Shown: in pieces, positions 10,243 to 56,268 of the stretch
Layout: every line of letters begins with the position of its first letter
Position numbering within the stretch: the stretch's first letter is position 1
From: Escherichia coli
GTDB lineage: Bacteria; Pseudomonadota; Gammaproteobacteria; Enterobacterales; Enterobacteriaceae
NCBI RefSeq assembly: GCF_017348835.2
Contig: NZ_CP071375.1
DNA: 64,000 bases
Strand: one strand, 5' to 3'
Program-made: the position numbers and the translations under genes
The notes under the pieces: model-generated
Databases searched by the model: none
Told to the model about the DNA's origin: nothing
Seen by the model: the letters and a program-made list of their open reading frames with translations, nothing else

Positions 10243-11445
10243 TTACCTGAACTGATAATGACCTTCGCCCAATCGGATAACCCTTCCCTCTTCTTCTGCG
10301 CGGTTCAGCCACACACTAATTTGTTCGATGGTTAAACCAGTACAAGACGCCAGCCTTTCAATACTTATCGATTCCTTTGCAAGGATCGCCAGTTCCGCCA
10401 CAAAGAGTTGATAAAAATCGACAGGCGTATACGCGGGCATTACTGCGTAATTTGCGTCATCTTCATGCAGCGAAAACAGTTCTGGTTGAGCGTTACGGAG
10501 TGCTCTGTCATACATCAGCCCAGGAACGTCTGGCAGTCTGATCGTCACATTCTCAGCCTGTTCAGCACTCCATGACGCCCCATTTTCTACTAATCGTGAA
10601 TTGGCTGATTGCATATCCTGATTTGGTTTAACCTGCACAGGCAGCCACTGATGTTTTAATGCCTCCATCGCCCCGGTTATCGTTCCACCGGTCATTCCCG
10701 CACGTACAACCATTGCGCTTTCAGCAAGGCAATAAATATATTTATTTCGCGCCATCGCATTGCCGACGGTGAAACGTACCTCTGGGTAAAACGGCGAAAT
10801 CAACACCAGGTTGCCTGCTATAAGCCCTTCACGCCATTTCACTAACGTACTCGTTTTTAACAAGCTATCAGCTAATACGCCAACGGCAGTTCCCCCGGCC
10901 TCCAGTGCCGACGCCATTGCACATTCATCAATACCTCGCGCACCACCAGAGATAACGCAAATCCCCTGTTGGGCCAGTTTCGCGGCCAGTTGTTGGGTAT
11001 AGCGCAAATCGTCAGTCGGAGCATCTCGCGAGCCAACAATCGCCATACCTTCCGCTTGCAGTAATGCTTTATTCCCGCAGCCAAATAAAACGGGAGGTGC
11101 ATCCGTTCGCAATCGGTTTTTCAAGCGAACGGGATAATCGGCATCTCCGCGGGTTAAGATCCATAAACCGGCGCGTTGCCACTTATCTACCGCCAACGCC
11201 AGACTATGACCGCGCGCCAGCAAGCCAAGAATACGCTCCTGAGAAATACGCGGATCGCTCCAGCCTGTAAGTTTATCTTGCGGTTGCGGCACCAGAAGCT
11301 CGGCGGGACTGATACGTTGGTGCTTCAGCCATAATGCAAACTTCCCCCATTCACTATTACTAAGAGGTTTATACTCACTCGCCGCCGCGCGAGAAAAATC
11401 GCTGGTTAGCAGGAGAGTTGCTTGTGCATTGGCTGAAAGATTCAT
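10243..11445 (-). CDS. DprA/Smf-like protein (SAM-like N-term, Rossmann DprA core with GGARGID motif, C-terminal winged-helix-like tail); partner of helicase-PRTase gene
   Basis: Track ORF 10243..11538; start set to ATG 11445..11443 (MNLSANAQATLLL...), which overlaps the upstream gene stop as TGATG; motif VISGGARGIDECAMASALEAGG typical of DprA Rossmann domain. Confidence 0.75.
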   Translation of the reverse strand: MNLSANAQATLLLTSDFSRAAASEYKPLSNSEWGKFALWLKHQRISPAELLVPQPQDKLTGWSDPRISQERILGLLARGHSLALAVDKWQRAGLWILTRGDADYPVRLKNRLRTDAPPVLFGCGNKALLQAEGMAIVGSRDAPTDDLRYTQQLAAKLAQQGICVISGGARGIDECAMASALEAGGTAVGVLADSLLKTSTLVKWREGLIAGNLVLISPFYPEVRFTVGNAMARNKYIYCLAESAMVVRAGMTGGTITGAMEALKHQWLPVQVKPNQDMQSANSRLVENGASWSAEQAENVTIRLPDVPGLMYDRALRNAQPELFSLHEDDANYAVMPAYTPVDFYQLFVAELAILAKESISIERLASCTGLTIEQISVWLNRAEEEGRVIRLGEGHYQFR

Positions 11446-13541
11446 CAATTTTTTACCGAGGTAGAAGCAAGGGCAAGAGGATAAACCGTCGGGCAACCTG
11501 CCTGGCCTAACAGTGCTGTCAGAACTGTCAGCGTCCATGCAGAATCCACGATATCGTCAACCAGCAACGCCGGACCAGGCATCAAAGGAGGGGTAATCAC
11601 AAACGCCCCGTCGAGATTTTGACACTGGTGGAAACGGTTTTGCTGCATTTTCTGCGGTGGATTGTCCACGACTTTTTCAATGGCATCAATAAAAGGTAAG
11701 CCAAGTTTCGCCGCCAGTCGCCGGGCAAAATCAGGAACCAGGTCGAGGTGCTTTAATGAAGGAACGCAGCATACCCAGGTTGGTTCAGGATGCGGATTCC
11801 AGCGTTGGCGAACCATTTCCGCACATGCCTCCACCAGTTCATCACTGAATCGCCCCGTTTTTTTCTCCTGTGCTACCTGCTTTCCCCACCCGGAATCTCC
11901 CCAACGAGAAAGGATTCGCCCCGTAGATCCTTGTAAACTCGCAGGCAAGTTCCCTTTAAATCCGTATTGCGTAAAAGCCCCAGCTGCCACCTGTTTATTG
12001 AGATTTAATGGCAGGTCAGCGTGTTTAATAAATAAGTTTGCCGCATGGAGTAAGCCGCTATCAATGTCGGGCGACAACAACGGATGCTGAAGACAACTGC
12101 TACATTTACCACAATGTTCGGCACCTGGCTCATCGAGTGCGCGGCGCAGAAATTGCATTTTGCACTCCTTGGTCGTGATATAGCTTTCAACGTCTGCCAG
12201 CTCACTTTTTCTCTGATTCATCAAATGGTTAATTCGTTCATGGTCAGGAGAAAAACTGACAATTGTTCTGCGCCATAATTTCTCGGTATACACCACAGGC
12301 GATGGATTTTCAGCTACCAATAATTTCAGTGCTTTTTCTATTTGCCCGTAACGGAGATTCGTCCGTTGTTCAATGCCTCGTAAGGTAAGACCGTCATTCA
12401 CGCTAAGTACGTTGAGTATTTCATGAATTTGCGCCTCCGCAGGAAAGGCGCTTTCACGGAAGAATTTATGAATAGCACGGTCTTCACTGCCGCAAAGCAG
12501 TATGCCAACAGCAGAATCGATACCGCGACCGGCACGCCCCACCTGTTGGTAGTAACCAACTATCGAACCTGGCATCTGGTAATGAATAACAAACCCCAAA
12601 TCCGGTTTGTCAAAGCCCATTCCCAGCGCCGTTGTCGCAACCAGCACTTTAATTTTATTTGCCAGCAACGCCTGCTCCAGATATTCCCTGGCAGTATTAG
12701 AATCTTCCGCGCCTTCACAAGTCACGCCGCTGTAGTAAGCAAATGCACTGATACCATTTTTCCTTAACCACTCGGCGACAAGTTCGGCATCGCGAGTAGT
12801 CAGGGTATAAACAATTCCCGATTTGGAAAACTGAGGGATAACTGTTGCTAACCATGCCAGACGGGATGACTGTTCACCTAAGACTAAGGCATCAAGCGCC
12901 AAACTTTCGCGAGCCAGCGTTCCACGCTGAATCACAATGTCACCCAATTGCTGACGGATATCCTCAACGACACGGTTATTCGCTGTCGCGGTTGTACCCA
13001 GAACAGGGGTATTCGCAGGTAGTTGGCGCAAAATATCTAATATACGTCGGTAATCCGGGCGAAAATCGTGGCCCCAATCAGAGATGCAGTGCGCCTCGTC
13101 GACCACAAGCAAGCCAATACGATCGGCTATAGGATATAAAACCGTTTCGATAAAGTCCTGGTTTGCCAAACGTTCCGGGGAAACCAGCAAGCAATCGACC
13201 TCACCTTGCAGCAACTTATCGCTAATGCGCTGCCATTCTTCTCTGTTTGTAGAATTCAACGTTTCAGCCGTAATACCTAACCGTTCAGCGGCGGCAACCT
13301 GGTTACGCATCAGGGCAAGCAAAGGAGAGATGATAATTGTCGGGCCAGCGCCGCGATCGCGGAAGATTTTACTGGCGATGAAGTACACAGCACTTTTCCC
13401 CCAGCCAGTGCGTTGGACAACCAGCAGTTTTCGCCGTTGGTTCACCACCGCGTCTATGGCTTCCCATTGCCCTTCCCTGAAAGTAGCGGTGGTATTTCCT
13501 AACATCCGCTGTAAAAGCAATTCAGCTGCGTGCTTTTCCAT
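11445..13541 (-). CDS. RecQ-family SF2 helicase fused to C-terminal ComF/GntX-type PRTase-like domain
   Basis: 698 aa; helicase motifs TGWGKS (Walker A), VVDEAHCISDWGHDFRPDY (DEAH), TATA, QQVGRAGR; RecQ-type Zn cluster CK...C..C..C (HCGKCSSC); C-terminal QNLDGAFVITPP...ALLVDDIVDSAWTLT resembles a PRTase fold with substituted PRPP loop; AGGAG SD 5 nt before ATG. Confidence 0.8.
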   Translation of the reverse strand: MEKHAAELLLQRMLGNTTATFREGQWEAIDAVVNQRRKLLVVQRTGWGKSAVYFIASKIFRDRGAGPTIIISPLLALMRNQVAAAERLGITAETLNSTNREEWQRISDKLLQGEVDCLLVSPERLANQDFIETVLYPIADRIGLLVVDEAHCISDWGHDFRPDYRRILDILRQLPANTPVLGTTATANNRVVEDIRQQLGDIVIQRGTLARESLALDALVLGEQSSRLAWLATVIPQFSKSGIVYTLTTRDAELVAEWLRKNGISAFAYYSGVTCEGAEDSNTAREYLEQALLANKIKVLVATTALGMGFDKPDLGFVIHYQMPGSIVGYYQQVGRAGRGIDSAVGILLCGSEDRAIHKFFRESAFPAEAQIHEILNVLSVNDGLTLRGIEQRTNLRYGQIEKALKLLVAENPSPVVYTEKLWRRTIVSFSPDHERINHLMNQRKSELADVESYITTKECKMQFLRRALDEPGAEHCGKCSSCLQHPLLSPDIDSGLLHAANLFIKHADLPLNLNKQVAAGAFTQYGFKGNLPASLQGSTGRILSRWGDSGWGKQVAQEKKTGRFSDELVEACAEMVRQRWNPHPEPTWVCCVPSLKHLDLVPDFARRLAAKLGLPFIDAIEKVVDNPPQKMQQNRFHQCQNLDGAFVITPPLMPGPALLVDDIVDSAWTLTVLTALLGQAGCPTVYPLALASTSVKN

Positions 13542-17727: not shown

Positions 17728-18765
17728 TTACTTCGCGAGAGTCACGGTGGAGGGAGAGGCTTGCTCAAATCCGCGTTCAAGGATTTCCAGATTGGTAAGA
17801 ACTTCAGATTCCTTGACGTAATTTGGCGCACCGTGGGTGATGGTTTGATACAACGCATCATAAACGCACCCGTAATCGCCCATCTCCGGCTTCATCTCTT
17901 CTCTGACCGTCACGCCCTCGTCATTGACATACTCCAGCACACCGACCGAATCATCCGCTGCGAATCCCGGTTCGCCCGGCATAATATTAGCCTTCAGGCT
18001 GGTTTCCTGCTGGTCGATACCGTATTTAATAAACGAACCTTTCTTACCGTGAACGATAAATTTCGGATAATCGATTTTCACCAGATGGCTGGTTTTGACG
18101 ATGGCTTTCAGGTCACCATAAAACAACTGCGCTTCGAAGGTGTCGTCAGGATTGGCTTTATCACGCAGGCTGCGGATGTCATAAGCGACGTGATCCGGGC
18201 GACCGAACAGAGAAATAATCTGGTCCATCGTATGCACACCAAGGCCATAGAATGCGCCATCCTGCGGCAACCCAGGTTTGGTTTCTGCGACCGGGCGGTA
18301 ATAGTCAAAATGGCTTTCCACTTCAACAATCTCTCCCAGCTTGCCGCTTTCAATCGCTTTTTTCGCCGTCAGGAAGCAGGAATCAAAGCGACGATTCTGA
18401 TACGGCGTGACGGTCAGCCCTTTGCTTTTCGCCAACGCAAACAGCTCCTTCGCCTGGGCAAGCGTCGGGGTGAACGGTTTTTCGACCAGCACATTTTTCC
18501 CGGCTTCCAGCGCGCGTTTCGCGTACTCGAAATGGCTGTCCGCGTGGGTGCAGACAACAACCAGCTTAACATCGGGATCGTTTAGTACTTCGTCGAGATC
18601 GCTGGTGAAATGGATATGGGAATAAATGGGAGCCTGTTCTTCCGGCTTCGCATGGCGACGAAAAATATGCGCGACATGCCAGCTATCCTTGCGGTTAAGT
18701 ACATACGGCAGATGGTAACGGGTGGTGCTTTTGCCGAAGCCAATAAAGGCGCAGTTGATGACCAT
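17728..18765 (-). CDS. yhhX: Gfo/Idh/MocA-family NAD(P)-dependent oxidoreductase YhhX
   Basis: 345 aa, MVINCAFIGFGKSTTRYHLPYV... Rossmann N-terminus. Confidence 0.9.
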   Translation of the reverse strand: MVINCAFIGFGKSTTRYHLPYVLNRKDSWHVAHIFRRHAKPEEQAPIYSHIHFTSDLDEVLNDPDVKLVVVCTHADSHFEYAKRALEAGKNVLVEKPFTPTLAQAKELFALAKSKGLTVTPYQNRRFDSCFLTAKKAIESGKLGEIVEVESHFDYYRPVAETKPGLPQDGAFYGLGVHTMDQIISLFGRPDHVAYDIRSLRDKANPDDTFEAQLFYGDLKAIVKTSHLVKIDYPKFIVHGKKGSFIKYGIDQQETSLKANIMPGEPGFAADDSVGVLEYVNDEGVTVREEMKPEMGDYGCVYDALYQTITHGAPNYVKESEVLTNLEILERGFEQASPSTVTLAK

Positions 18766-18886
18766 GATTTCGTCCTTTTTAAGGTGGTTATTTACACCTT
18801 AGCGCAAAGCGGACGTGGTTCCTACTGGAGTGCGCATAACGAACACAAGCACTCCCGTGGATAAATTGAGAACGAAAGATCAAAAA

Positions 18887-18976
18887 AAAAGCCAGCACCC
18901 GGCTGGCTAAGTAATACTGGAAGCAATGTGAGCAATGTCGTGCTTTCAGGTTCTCCGCGAGGGTCTTCCTGATCGC
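18887..18976 (-). ncRNA. ryhB: RyhB small RNA (Fur-repressed, iron-sparing regulator)
   Basis: Minus-strand sequence GCGATCAGGAAGACCCTCGCGGAGAACCTGAAAGCACGACATTGCTCACATTGCTTCCAGTATTACTTAGCCAGCCGGGTGCTGGC + U-tract matches RyhB; located between yhhX and yhhY as expected. Confidence 0.9.
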
Positions 18977-18980
18977 GAGA

Positions 18981-19000
18981 CAATAATAATCATTCTCATT
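18981..19000 (-). promoter_or_regulatory. Fur box overlapping ryhB promoter
   Basis: caataataatcattctcatt resembles Fur consensus GATAATGATAATCATTATC, immediately upstream of the RyhB 5' end. Confidence 0.7.
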
Positions 19001-19098
19001 CGCACTTGTCCAACACTTTTTGCAAAAAAATGCATTTGACTCGTATTTGAAAGTCAATGATGTTGAAAGGGACATTTACCCCAAATGAGGACAAAGGA

Positions 19099-19587
19099 AT
19101 GAGTGAGATAGTGATACGCCATGCTGAAACGCGCGATTACGAGGCCATCAGGCAGATTCACGCCCAGCCGGAGGTGTATTGCAACACGCTACAAGTGCCT
19201 CATCCTTCCGATTATATGTGGCAGGAGCGACTCGCCGATCGTCCCGGCATCAAGCAACTCGTCGCCTGTATTGATGGAGACGTCGTGGGCCATCTCACCA
19301 TTGACGTGCAACAGCGCCCACGCCGCAGTCATGTTGCCGATTTTGGTATCTGTGTCGACTCCCGTTGGAAGAATCGCGGCGTCGCCAGCGCCTTTATGCG
19401 AGAGATGATTGAAATGTGCGACAACTGGTTGCGGGTAGATCGTATCGAGCTAACGGTGTTCGTCGATAACGCGCCAGCAATTAAGGTCTATAAAAAATAC
19501 GGCTTTGAAATTGAAGGGACTGGTAAGAAGTACGCATTGCGTAATGGTGAATATGTTGATGCGTATTATATGGCGCGGGTGAAATAA
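19099..19587 (+). CDS. yhhY: GNAT-family N-acetyltransferase YhhY
   Basis: Track ORF from 19057; conserved start MSEIVIRHAETRDYEAIRQIH at ATG 19099. Confidence 0.88.
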   Translation: MSEIVIRHAETRDYEAIRQIHAQPEVYCNTLQVPHPSDYMWQERLADRPGIKQLVACIDGDVVGHLTIDVQQRPRRSHVADFGICVDSRWKNRGVASAFMREMIEMCDNWLRVDRIELTVFVDNAPAIKVYKKYGFEIEGTGKKYALRNGEYVDAYYMARVK

Positions 19588-19612
19588 AGAATTTGCAATC
19601 TAAGTTTGCCAT

Positions 19613-19643
19613 TTAAGCCCTCACCTACCGGGAGAGGGCTTAA
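19613..19643. terminator. Bidirectional hairpin between convergent yhhY and ggt (ttaagccctc / gagggcttaa)
   Basis: 10-bp perfect inverted repeat with 11-nt loop in the 60-bp yhhY-ggt gap. Confidence 0.45.
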
Positions 19644-19647
19644 GATA

Positions 19648-21381
19648 TTAATAACCCGCCGTTAAATCATCCACCGAGCGCGGATCGGATGCGCCGTACA
19701 ACTCACCGTCCGGCCCAACCATAATGCTTTGTGTACTGCCCATCGCCTCTTTCAGCGCCACTTTCTGACCTTTTGCTTCCAGCAGCTTGAGCGTATCCGG
19801 GCTAAACCCTTTTTCGACACGCAGCTCGTCCGGCAACCACTGATGGTGGAAACGCGGCGCATTGGTCGCTTCGGCGACGTTCATGCCATAATCGATGCTA
19901 TTCACCACCATTTGAAGCACTGTAGTGATGATCCGGCTCCCGCCAGGGCTACCGGTGACCAGCCAGGTTTTACCGTCTTTCACCAAAATGGTGGGTGACA
20001 TCGACGACAGCGGGCGTTTATTCGGCCCGACCGCGTTGGCATCACCGCCCACCAGCCCGTAAACGTTCGGTACGCCCGGTTTGGCGGAGAAATCATCCAT
20101 CTGGTTATTAAGCAGAATACCGCTCTCGCCCGCGACAATACCCGTACCGAAGGTGGTGTTCAGCGTATAGGTCACCGCCACGGCGTTACCGTCTTTATCC
20201 ACCACTGAGTAATGGGTAGTTTGATTACTCTCATAAGGCGCAAGCTTGCCAGGGCGAATCTCGCTGGACGGTTTCGCTTTATTGATATCGATTTGCTCGG
20301 CAATAGATTTGGCATAGGCTTTATTGGTCAGCGCCTGCCACGGGACTTTCATAAAATCCGGGTCGCCAAGATATTCCGAGCGGTCAGCGTAGGCATATTT
20401 CTCCGCTTCTGCCATGATCTGCATCGCATCGGCGCTGCCAAAGCCGTATTTCTTCATATCGAAGTTTTCCAGAATATTGAGGATTTGTACGATATGGATC
20501 CCGCCGGAGGATGGCGGTGGCATGGAGTAAACCTGATACCCGCGATAATCGCCGCTTATCGGTGTGCGTTCGACCGCTTTATACGCCGCTAAATCTTCTT
20601 TAGTGATCAGGCCACCGTTTTTCTGCATCTCCTGGGCAATCTGTTCCGCTATCGTGCCTTTGTAGAATTCGTCCGGGCCGTTTTCGGCAATCATCTCCAG
20701 GCTCTTTGCCAGGTTCGCCTGCACCAGCTTGTCGCCCTTTTTCAGCGGCTCGCCCTCTTTCCAGAAGATAGCCTTGCTGTTTTCGTGATTCGGCAGCACT
20801 TCGCTCCCGTAGGTTTTGAGATCGTCAGCCAGCGCGTCGTTAACGATAAAACCATCGCGTGCCAGTTTAAACGCTGGCTGCACCACTTTGTTCAACGGCA
20901 TTGTGCCGTATTTATCCAACGCCAGCGAGAAACCAGCGACCGTACCGGGCGTGCCGGAAGCCAGATGCGAAGTGAGTGATTTTTTGCTGTCCGGGTTACC
21001 CTGATCATCAAGGAACATATCGCGGGTCGCTTTGGCGGGTGCCATTTCGCGGAAATCGATAGCGGTGGTATTGCCATTTTTCGAGCGGATCAGCATAAAA
21101 CCACCACCGCCCAGATTCCCTGCCTGCGGATGCGTTACCGCCAGCGCGTAGCCCACAGCCACGGCGGCATCAACGGCATTCCCGCCCTCCTTGAGGATAT
21201 CCACCCCCACCTGAGTGGCAGTAGCATCTACAGATGCCACCATCCCCTGTTTCGCGCGTACCGGATGGAAGACATCTTCCTCCACGCCGTAAGAAACAGG
21301 AGGCGCAGCGGCGGCGCTAAAACAACTTCCTGAGAGCAGAGCAGCAATGGCCACCCGGCGTAAAAACGTCGGTTTTATCAT
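19648..21381 (-). CDS. ggt: Gamma-glutamyltranspeptidase
   Basis: Track ORF 19648..21408; start set to MIKPTFLRRVAIAALLSGSCFSAAA (signal peptide) at 21381; Ntn-hydrolase. Confidence 0.9.
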   Translation of the reverse strand: MIKPTFLRRVAIAALLSGSCFSAAAAPPVSYGVEEDVFHPVRAKQGMVASVDATATQVGVDILKEGGNAVDAAVAVGYALAVTHPQAGNLGGGGFMLIRSKNGNTTAIDFREMAPAKATRDMFLDDQGNPDSKKSLTSHLASGTPGTVAGFSLALDKYGTMPLNKVVQPAFKLARDGFIVNDALADDLKTYGSEVLPNHENSKAIFWKEGEPLKKGDKLVQANLAKSLEMIAENGPDEFYKGTIAEQIAQEMQKNGGLITKEDLAAYKAVERTPISGDYRGYQVYSMPPPSSGGIHIVQILNILENFDMKKYGFGSADAMQIMAEAEKYAYADRSEYLGDPDFMKVPWQALTNKAYAKSIAEQIDINKAKPSSEIRPGKLAPYESNQTTHYSVVDKDGNAVAVTYTLNTTFGTGIVAGESGILLNNQMDDFSAKPGVPNVYGLVGGDANAVGPNKRPLSSMSPTILVKDGKTWLVTGSPGGSRIITTVLQMVVNSIDYGMNVAEATNAPRFHHQWLPDELRVEKGFSPDTLKLLEAKGQKVALKEAMGSTQSIMVGPDGELYGASDPRSVDDLTAGY

Positions 21382-21500
21382 CGTTATTCTCCAGAGATTA
21401 ATGGGCAACCCCAGCTAAGCCTGGTATATAACTCTGAATTAATCCTGATGATTGCAGGAAAGGAGTAAACTTAAAGAATATCTTCAGAGGAGGATACGCG

Positions 21501-27242: not shown

Positions 27243-27989
27243 TCATTGCACCACACTCTGCTTCAACCATTCATTGGCGGTCTTAATCCATTCCCGGTGG
27301 TGTTTTCTATAATGAGGTCTTGAGCGTTTAGCCGTATCAACTACAGCAACATACTGCTCGTTGGCTTCACGTAACCGACTCATTTTCGCCAACATTTCCG
27401 CATAGTAAATACGCGCCTGCGGGCCGGGGTAATAAGAAATCAATACTTCAAACTCGCTTTCCGCATCAGCGTATTTTTCTTGTGCGGCTAACGTTCTGGC
27501 AAATAACAAATGCCCGTCTGCCGACTGAAAATCAGGGTTATAACGCATCACATCTTCCAGCGTCTGCTGACAGGCGGCGAACTCCTGAATAGCAAACTGT
27601 GCCTGCGCCAGGCTTAGCATCATTGCCGCTTCATGGGCGAATATCCCGCTTAACGCCTGCTGATAATGGGGAACAGCTTCGTGATAACGCCCCAGGCGCG
27701 CCAGTTCATTAGCCAACGCATAATGGTTTTGATTCGTCTCGGCAATCGCCAGTTCTTCGGTTAATTTGCGCAGGTGGCGCTCAGGGTTGAGTTTGTCCTG
27801 CAGGCGCATCAGCAAAGTATGCCCGTGACGGTCAGCGCCCGTTTCAGGCAGCATCACTATGACGAAATACGCCACGCAGCCAATCACCGGAAAACAGAAA
27901 ATGATAAAAATCCAGTACCGCTCTTGTCCGGTACGGTAAGCGTGAATACAGCAAAGCAGTTCAAGCATGACAACAACGGCATAATGCAT
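27243..27989 (-). CDS. Membrane-anchored protein: N-terminal PLDc_N-like two-helix domain + TPR-like repeats
   Basis: 248 aa ORF; N-terminus YWIFIIFCFPVIGCVAYFVIVM resembles the PLDc_N small membrane domain; remainder has TPR-like helical repeats; sits between ugpB and livF. Confidence 0.65.
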   Translation of the reverse strand: MHYAVVVMLELLCCIHAYRTGQERYWIFIIFCFPVIGCVAYFVIVMLPETGADRHGHTLLMRLQDKLNPERHLRKLTEELAIAETNQNHYALANELARLGRYHEAVPHYQQALSGIFAHEAAMMLSLAQAQFAIQEFAACQQTLEDVMRYNPDFQSADGHLLFARTLAAQEKYADAESEFEVLISYYPGPQARIYYAEMLAKMSRLREANEQYVAVVDTAKRSRPHYRKHHREWIKTANEWLKQSVVQ

Positions 27990-33367: not shown

Positions 33368-33751
33368 ATGAAGCTGACCATCATTCGATTAGAAAAATTT
33401 AGCGACCAGGACCGGATTGACCTGCAAAAGATCTGGCCGGAGTATTCCCCTTCCTCTTTACAGGTTGACGATAACCACCGCATCTACGCCGCACGTTTCA
33501 ACGAGCGCCTGCTTGCTGCTGTACGCGTAACCTTGAGCGGCACCGGGGGGGCACTGGATTCTCTGCGCGTGCGGGAAGTCACCCGACGTCGCGGCGTGGG
33601 GCAATATCTGCTGGAAGAGGTGTTAAGTGATAATGCCAGCGTTTCATCCTGGTGGATGGCGGATGCAGGCGTAGAAGATCGCGGTGTGATGACGGCGTTT
33701 ATGCAGGCACTGGGATTTACGGCACAGCAGGGCGGCTGGGAGAAGCGTTAA
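33368..33751 (+). CDS. panM: PanD maturation factor PanM/PanZ (GNAT-like)
   Basis: 127 aa MKLTIIRLEKFSDQDRIDLQKIWPEY... Confidence 0.88.
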   Translation: MKLTIIRLEKFSDQDRIDLQKIWPEYSPSSLQVDDNHRIYAARFNERLLAAVRVTLSGTGGALDSLRVREVTRRRGVGQYLLEEVLSDNASVSSWWMADAGVEDRGVMTAFMQALGFTAQQGGWEKR

Positions 33752-34275
33752 TCGCTCTGTGTAAAAAGCAGTTCAATGGATTTGGTTGGGAAAAATAACG
33801 CATTTTCGTTTTCCCCGACTAAAGGGATAAAGCCCAGCGATTTATAAAACGTATGGGCTTTTTCATTCAGCGCCTCGACAAAAAGACCGTGAATACCTAC
33901 CGCTAAAGAGGCTGACCAGACGACTTTCATGGCATGAGCAACCAGTGTTGCTCCCCATCCCTGCCCCTGTAATGAACGATCAATTGCCAGACGCCCAAGA
34001 GTGACGCTGGGAATATTTTTGTAGGGAATTTTTTTCTGTTTCGATTTCGAGGGCAATGCGGCTCGTTCAAAACAACTGCCGGATAATGTGTAATATCCCA
34101 GCACCTGACGTTCTGGAGTGTTGCGACAAAGGATATACGCTCGCAGAATTTTGTTGCGATGTTGACGAACGAGATGTGTCGTCAGAAAGAGATTTAACGC
34201 TTCCTCGCCGCAGTCGAATCGCTGTAGATCATAATCTGCATCATCGGTCAGAATCTCTATCGTCAGATCATCCAT
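33748..34275 (-). CDS. ataT: GNAT-family acetyltransferase toxin (AtaT/ItaT/TacT-like tRNA-acetylating toxin)
   Basis: 175 aa MDDLTIEILTDDADYDLQRFDCGEEALNLFL...; lies directly downstream of a DUF1778 antitoxin gene; 4-bp convergent overlap with panM. Confidence 0.7.
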   Translation of the reverse strand: MDDLTIEILTDDADYDLQRFDCGEEALNLFLTTHLVRQHRNKILRAYILCRNTPERQVLGYYTLSGSCFERAALPSKSKQKKIPYKNIPSVTLGRLAIDRSLQGQGWGATLVAHAMKVVWSASLAVGIHGLFVEALNEKAHTFYKSLGFIPLVGENENALFFPTKSIELLFTQSD

Positions 34276-34281
34276 AAATTA

Positions 34282-34548
34282 TTACATTCCCTGAAGACGT
34301 TTTGCCGCACGTTTTAGCTTTTCACCTGGTGACGGTGGATTACTCAGCGCATCCATCACCCGCATCCAGGATTCCTCATTGAGGATCACCCGCCGATGTT
34401 GTTCAATCACTTCCGCAGCCCGCTGCGAAGCGCTGTTCAACATAAATTGGCTGACGGACTGATTAGATATCGCTGCCGCTTCCTCAATCATACTTTTGTC
34501 ATCGTCAGTTAAACGCAGATCGATACGCTGCTTTTTAACAGCAGACAT
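34282..34548 (-). CDS. ataR: DUF1778 (RHH) antitoxin of GNAT toxin (AtaR-like)
   Basis: 88 aa MSAVKKQRIDLRLTDDDKSMIEEAAAISNQSVSQFMLNSA...; ribbon-helix-helix N-terminus; AGGAG SD. Confidence 0.7.
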   Translation of the reverse strand: MSAVKKQRIDLRLTDDDKSMIEEAAAISNQSVSQFMLNSASQRAAEVIEQHRRVILNEESWMRVMDALSNPPSPGEKLKRAAKRLQGM

Positions 34549-55636: not shown

Positions 55637-55996
55637 TTATAAATGATTCAAACGCTCATTCAGTGTTTCAATAATATAGGTATTAACAGAGACTTGTTGC
55701 TGCGCAGCCGCATTATTAAGGCGTTCACTCAGCGATTCTGGATAACGTAACGTAAAGGTTTTAATCTTTTCTGTACGCGCATACGGCTCAATACCCGCAG
55801 CTTTACAATCCTCAAGATACTCTCGCAGGGAAAGCTCTCCTTCTTTTTGCAGCCCCTGAATACTGTCAGAGACAAAATCACAATAACCTGACAAGCCCAG
55901 GAATTTGCCACGAAATGCATTCAGTTCTGGCACGTAAGTGATAACTGCAGGTTGCCCGGCAATCTCCATAGAGTTTGGCGTCTTCAGTTTGATCAT
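55637..55996 (-). CDS. hicB: HicB-like antitoxin (RNase-H-like N-domain + C-terminal ribbon-helix-helix)
   Basis: 119 aa; C-terminus KTFTLRYPESLSERLNNAAAQQQVSVNTYIIETLNERL is a CopG/RHH DNA-binding motif; start overlaps upstream hicA-like stop (ATGA). Confidence 0.7.
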   Translation of the reverse strand: MIKLKTPNSMEIAGQPAVITYVPELNAFRGKFLGLSGYCDFVSDSIQGLQKEGELSLREYLEDCKAAGIEPYARTEKIKTFTLRYPESLSERLNNAAAQQQVSVNTYIIETLNERLNHL

Positions 55997-56268
55997 GGTT
56001 TTACCCCTATACTTAGTAACCAGTCACGCACGCTTTCTACAGCGCCTTTATCGGTATCTGGCGACGGATGAGGCCGATGGAAACACGCAACGCTCATATT
56101 TAGTATGAACTTACAACGCGAACCTCTTCCTTCCTTAATTTCTCCGCCTAACGCTTTAACCAGAGATTCTATATCAGTCCATTTGATTCCTTGAGGTAAA
56201 GGTGATTTAAATAGCTGATCCAGTGTGTTTTTTTGTTTCTTTCGTAAAGCCTGTACCTGTGTTTACAT
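55993..56268 (-). pseudogene. hicA: HicA-like mRNA-interferase toxin reading frame interrupted by TAA at codon 2
   Basis: Frame reads ATG-TAA-TQVQALRKKQKNTLDQLFKSPLPQGIKWTDIESLVKALGGEIKEGRGSRCKFILNMSVACFHRPHPSPDTDKGAVESVRDWLLSIGVKP-TGA; TTGACT/TAAAGT promoter-like elements and AGGGA SD precede the ATG; only in-frame ATG downstream is 34 codons from the end. Confidence 0.5.

Follow-up and report, generated by a model that had tools for sequence, protein, structure and literature searches.

The yhhX–yhhY intergenic region

The window, by which we mean the whole 64,000-nt stretch of E. coli DNA that was analysed, carries the oxidoreductase gene yhhX at positions 17728–18765 on the minus strand and the N-acetyltransferase gene yhhY at 19099–19587 on the plus strand. 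Between them, on the minus strand at 18882–18976, lies ryhB, the gene of the 95-nt RyhB sRNA. Identity to K-12 and an Rfam scan support this assignment. The transcription start is the G at 18976, the 5′ end in the K-12 annotation, and the 3′ end falls in the U-tail at 18882, exactly where the preliminary description of this DNA had the element begin. ryhB is co-directional with yhhX, the start codon of which lies 116 nt downstream on the same strand, and divergent from yhhY, the ATG of which is 122 nt away from the RyhB start. Both neighbours and their orientations are the same in K-12. Thus, the yhhX–ryhB–yhhY order of the preliminary description and its placing of the RyhB 3′ end toward yhhX were correct. 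Its statement that the sRNA is antisense to the end of the yhhX–yhhY interval was wrong, as a gene that lies within the intergenic region is antisense to no gene.

When 4227 Rfam families were scanned against the 64-kb window, the sole RNA match at gathering level was to RyhB (RF00057), at 18947–18883 on the minus strand. The alignment was full-length (model positions 1–67 of 67) and scored 83.1 bits, against a curated gathering score of 55 bits for this family, with an E-value of 3.6e-14. Such a scan had been named beforehand as the check that could refute the RyhB call, and RyhB was called. A permissive scan of 18500–19300 returned nothing besides RyhB except a sub-threshold match to PrrF (RF00444; 21.3 bits against a gathering score of 90, E 0.43), which we rejected. 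PrrF1 and PrrF2 of Pseudomonas belong to a different family from RyhB; like RyhB, they are Fur-repressed sRNAs that repress mRNAs of iron-using proteins.

Alignment of 18882–18976 (minus strand) with the ncRNA gene ryhB of K-12 MG1655 (b4451, 3580922–3581016; RF00057) gave 95 identical positions out of 95. The two strains share the same RNA, promoter hexamers, Fur box and terminator, and no difference was found over the interval that begins at the yhhX start codon and extends well past the ryhB promoter on its upstream side. The RyhB identification made earlier is thus borne out by both the family match and the K-12 identity, and its treatment as a known element agrees with a sequence, promoter and Fur box that are those of the experimentally characterised K-12 locus. 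The intergenic differences from K-12 amount to one single-base indel and one substitution, both upstream of the promoter toward yhhY. The single substitution falls in the spacer of an inverted repeat, TTGACT-N10-AGTCAA, at 19036–19057 in the divergent ryhB–yhhY control region; this repeat may belong to the yhhY promoter or serve as a binding site for a regulator.

Promoter, Fur box and terminator

A promoter scan placed the −10 hexamer TATTAT at 18983–18988 (minus strand), that is, at −12 to −7 relative to the transcription start, and the −35 hexamer TGGACA at 19007–19012 (minus strand), separated from it by an 18-nt spacer. This promoter, which agrees with the pattern at 10 of 12 positions, is the only sigma-70-like match in 18500–19400. 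The end that the preliminary description gave to the element, 19020, lies 8 nt past the −35 hexamer (19012–19007).

The Fur box, GACAATAATAATCATTCTC, occupies 18979–18997, corresponding to −3 to −21, and overlaps the −10 hexamer, in keeping with the earlier claim of a Fur box over the promoter. It agrees at 16 of 19 positions with the 19-bp consensus used here, GATAATGATAATCATTATC. With a cut-off of at most three mismatches it is the only match in the 64-kb window, where 0.02 would be expected by chance, and only 2 of 100 shuffled sequences contained any match of this quality. In K-12, a cluster of Fur sites before ryhB scored 25.2 bits, is located at about −15 and bound Fur in gel shifts (PMC2189734).

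The transcript ends in a Rho-independent terminator (18882–18908, minus strand), found by a terminator scan and seen also as an inverted repeat (I3) and in the predicted fold. Its stem, AGCCAGC/GCTGGCT, has seven pairs, five of them G-C, closes a 5-nt loop at 18908–18890 and is followed by nine T to 18882; as RNA, the hairpin reads AGCCAGC-CGGGU-GCUGGCU and leads into nine U. The intrinsic terminator of the preliminary description is therefore present. The promoter and the terminator came from independent pattern scans and are spaced as expected. In RyhB, the terminator hairpin and U-tail constitute the 3′ Hfq-binding module (PMC4509938). The published length of RyhB is 90 nt (PMC3423075), and the difference from the 95 nt given here most likely reflects only the number of tail U residues counted. 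A second terminator-like site, with six pairs and a weak T-tail, was noted at 18859–18844; as the scan found two sites against 1.1 expected, this one is no more than chance would give.

The predicted fold of the 95-nt RNA has a minimum free energy of −24.1 kcal/mol and is no more stable than those of shuffled sequences (z = −0.67). Such a result is usual for Hfq-dependent sRNAs and uninformative. For this reason, our structural assignment of RyhB is based on the covariance model instead.

Conservation and annotation in E. coli

The 139-nt element at 18882–19020 was found in 5424 of 5426 complete E. coli genomes and was at least 99% identical in 5413 of them. It was always chromosomal and occupied a median of one place per genome. 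A 501-nt query that included the flanks also matched 5424 of the 5426 genomes, with at least 99% identity in only 248. Comparison of these two counts (5413 versus 248) indicates that the sRNA and its promoter are markedly more conserved than the flanking DNA. Two of the 5426 genomes had no match to the element, and at least one genome had three places.

The 501-nt query matched strain F2_81 at 100%. When the whole window was compared with the reverse complement of NZ_CP043542.1 278648–342647, 7 of 64,000 positions differed and there were no indels.

In the 13 RefSeq E. coli records that were inspected besides K-12 MG1655 (H1 and H16–H27), no annotated feature lies over ryhB, and this holds for the nearly identical strain as well. 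Twelve of these records have the sequence at 99% identity or more, and H27 has it at 93.9%; the absent PGAP feature is thus an annotation gap and not evidence of absence. Six-frame or CDS-only views miss ryhB, and because the gene is unmarked in CDS-only annotation, an RNA-family scan is needed to account for the 334-nt intergenic region that would otherwise look empty.

Other features of the window

The F2_81 annotation points to several further features. Directly after yhhY comes ggt (19667–21400, minus strand), with the yhhY–ggt junction at 19588–19647, whereas in K-12 yhhY is followed by yhhZ; this strain therefore does not have the K-12 block that begins with yhhZ. Between gntU and yhgN, at about 10243–13541 on the minus strand, genes for a RecQ-family helicase and for a DprA-like protein overlap one another by about 94 nt. 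K-12 is not known to have genes at this site, and the pair may be a small accessory island. Two further pairs of accessory genes are an AtaR/AtaT toxin-antitoxin pair at about 33748–34548, between livJ and panM, and a HicA/HicB pair at about 55637–56223, between yhhJ and nikR. An accessory gene for a tetratricopeptide-repeat protein lies at about 27243–27989, between livF and ugpB, and two adjacent genes for DUF4049-domain proteins (about 61616–64000) reach the window end.

RyhB loci in other genera

Conservation beyond E. coli centres on a 24-nt core, CACGACAUUGCUCACAUUGCUUCC (in the RNA, CACGACATTGCTCACATTGCTTCC), which corresponds to RyhB nt 35–58 and lies at 18919–18942 on the minus strand. 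Other genera have the identical core in at least 120 loci; those among the matches listed include Vibrio, Photobacterium, Aeromonas, Yersinia, Photorhabdus, Pantoea, Serratia, Pectobacterium, Edwardsiella and Hafnia. Among the matches listed, 94 of the 114 loci with full flanks have a Fur-box match (at most four mismatches) within 200 nt upstream of the core, whereas such a match occurs in 11 of 600 control windows taken from these loci. In the matches listed, a median of 46 nt separates the box from the core, with 5th and 95th percentiles of 35 and 106 nt. At least five consecutive T follow the core in 110 of the 114 listed loci, and 19 of 20 sampled from the matches listed score above the Rfam RyhB threshold. 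The joint recurrence of these elements indicates that Fur box, core and terminator, in this order, form a conserved unit.

The homologues and paralogues of RyhB in Enterobacterales, Vibrionales and Aeromonadales thus share with the E. coli gene the exact core, the upstream Fur box and the downstream T-run, whereas the 5′ portions and the distance between Fur box and core vary. E. coli has one ryhB; many genera have two copies, such as ryhB-2 in Klebsiella and the copies of Yersinia, Photorhabdus, Pantoea and Serratia. In Salinivibrio sharmensis, one strand carries two RyhB cores in tandem, separated by about 300 nt (locus L037, 11697–12026), each with its own upstream Fur-box-like site; in many other genera the two copies are unlinked.

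The neighbours of ryhB differ in how far they are retained. In contrast to the arrangement described here, yhhX is not always adjacent to ryhB in other genera, and among the matches listed it lies downstream only in Enterobacteriaceae proper. On the other side, tblastn found yhhY divergent from the RyhB core at 152–214 nt in 31 of the listed loci, a spacing that spans Escherichia to Yersinia, Serratia, Pantoea, Hafnia and Rahnella. The loci with this conserved divergent arrangement, which corresponds to 18942–19099 in the window, include L008, L026, L033, L041, L047, L053, L082, L099, L103, L107, L120 and L121, among others. Judging from the sequences, such constant spacing could be compatible with shared control of ryhB and yhhY by the Fur site.

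Identity of the element and alternative readings

Taken as a whole, the region 18882–19012 on the minus strand is, with a probability that we put at about 98%, the chromosomal ryhB gene of an E. coli strain almost identical to F2_81, and nothing in its sequence speaks to the contrary. The Fur box over the −10 hexamer, a short transcript free of AUG and a strong intrinsic terminator are seen in the sequence itself. Indeed, each defining feature of RyhB that can be judged from sequence is found here, namely the covariance-model score, the core, the terminator, the Fur box and the synteny with yhhX and yhhY, and by this measure the gene is ordinary, already known and a standard example of its family.

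A tentative proposal, which supplements the assignment to ryhB and does not replace it, is that the ryhB promoter also serves as a Fur-controlled promoter of yhhX. A fraction of transcripts would read through the terminator and cross the 116-nt spacer (18766–18881, minus strand), a possible route into yhhX, so that ryhB and yhhX would form an operon like sgrS–setA. This read-through and co-transcription was proposed in 2000 and in 2015 was still a proposal (PMC4509938). On a plasmid construct about 20% of polymerases pass the ryhB terminator (PMC4509938). The sgrS–setA locus is similar in that there, too, a protein gene follows the sRNA gene directly and in the same direction, and read-through was measurable for both sgrS and ryhB; for sgrS–setA, however, co-transcription has been shown (PMC4509938).

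Several observations favour such an operon. Besides the common direction of the two genes and the short distance between them, a simple scan detected no sigma-70-like promoter in the spacer, although so coarse a scan might overlook a yhhX promoter that is weak or not of the sigma-70 type. Moreover, an in vivo selection of Fur sites first assigned the ryhB site to yhhX (PMC2189734), and the order ryhB then yhhX is common to Escherichia, Citrobacter, Enterobacter, Leclercia, Phytobacter and others. Against it, the terminator, with its five G-C pairs and nine U, is strong, and iron depletion, the very condition in which the promoter is active, makes termination more frequent still (PMC4509938). 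In several genera intervening DNA sets yhhX 0.9–1.5 kb apart from the core, and the gene after ryhB in Klebsiella is a different ORF (PMC3423075), indicating that the linkage of ryhB and yhhX is not obligatory. The spacer also holds two small hairpins, at 18824–18858 and 18780–18801, of which the latter immediately precedes the ribosome-binding site of yhhX; these hairpins and the lack of a sigma-70-like promoter match in the spacer bear on the co-transcription idea.

A broader version, which we consider somewhat less probable still, holds that the ryhB promoter region does more than make RyhB, in that ryhB and yhhX would be a Fur-dependent operon by read-through and the Fur site would also control yhhY. 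Control of yhhY by the same Fur site could be envisaged because the divergent yhhY–ryhB spacing is nearly fixed across genera.

That the locus encodes a small protein is very improbable. The six-frame list does contain two minus-strand ORFs here, 18822–18983 (53 amino acids, TTG start) and 18788–19075 (95 amino acids, ATG start), but the longer one starts upstream of the promoter and crosses the Fur box, the sRNA and the terminator, while the TTG of the shorter one lies 7 nt upstream of the transcription start, so that this ORF is not on the RyhB transcript. In addition, the 95-nt RNA has no AUG, neither K-12 nor F2_81 has a CDS annotated at ryhB, and what is conserved across genera seems to be mainly the 24-nt core and the architecture of the terminator, not a reading frame.

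Finally, the region might be a decayed copy of RyhB without function, or resemble RyhB only by chance; here the only weak point of the assignment is a fold energy like that of shuffled sequence. Both readings are ruled out, to a residual doubt smaller than any above, by the Rfam score (E 3.6e-14), by 100% identity to the functional K-12 gene, its promoter, Fur box and terminator included, and by the finding that nearly all E. coli genomes have the element once, on the chromosome.

Target pairing and predicted mode of action

As a functional ryhB gene, the locus should produce an RNA able to pair with the known targets. Within the core, a 9-nt stretch, GACAUUGCU (RyhB nt 38–46; 18939–18931, minus strand), is complementary to the start-codon region of sodB. 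As sodB is absent from the window, the K-12 copy was used for the pairing check; at the sequence level, RyhB nt 38–46 are the perfect complement of the nine nucleotides from −4 to +5 of K-12 sodB, AGCAAUGUC, across the AUG. A whole-molecule RNAduplex calculation of RyhB against sodB −60 to +30 gave −34.8 kcal/mol, with 14 of 1000 shuffles as good. The long duplex that it predicts is unrealistic because intramolecular structure is ignored, and the result was set aside; the exact 9-nt sodB complement alone was taken as pairing evidence.

In the published mechanism, Fe2+-Fur represses ryhB and iron starvation relieves the repression; RyhB in complex with Hfq then acts on about 20 mRNAs of iron proteins, including sodB and sdhC, by translation block and decay through the RNase E degradosome (PMC8544716). 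Expression, Fur dependence, Hfq binding and target regulation would be expected to follow the same course in this strain, given the identity to the K-12 locus. When iron is plentiful, Fe2+-Fur would occupy the box and block RNA polymerase; when iron is scarce, Fur would leave and RyhB would be made. Hfq would bind the RNA by the terminator hairpin and U-tail, and the conserved single-stranded core would be free to pair with about 20 mRNAs at the sites where their translation begins; these mRNAs, sodB and sdhC among them, encode iron-using proteins that are not essential. This pairing would block translation and recruit the RNase E degradosome, and the loss of the target mRNAs would spare scarce iron for essential enzymes.

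RyhB is a textbook regulator of the bacterial iron economy, and its occurrence here is biologically nothing new. Of practical use is the exact identity of the gene to that of K-12, by which what is known of RyhB regulation should be transferable to this strain.
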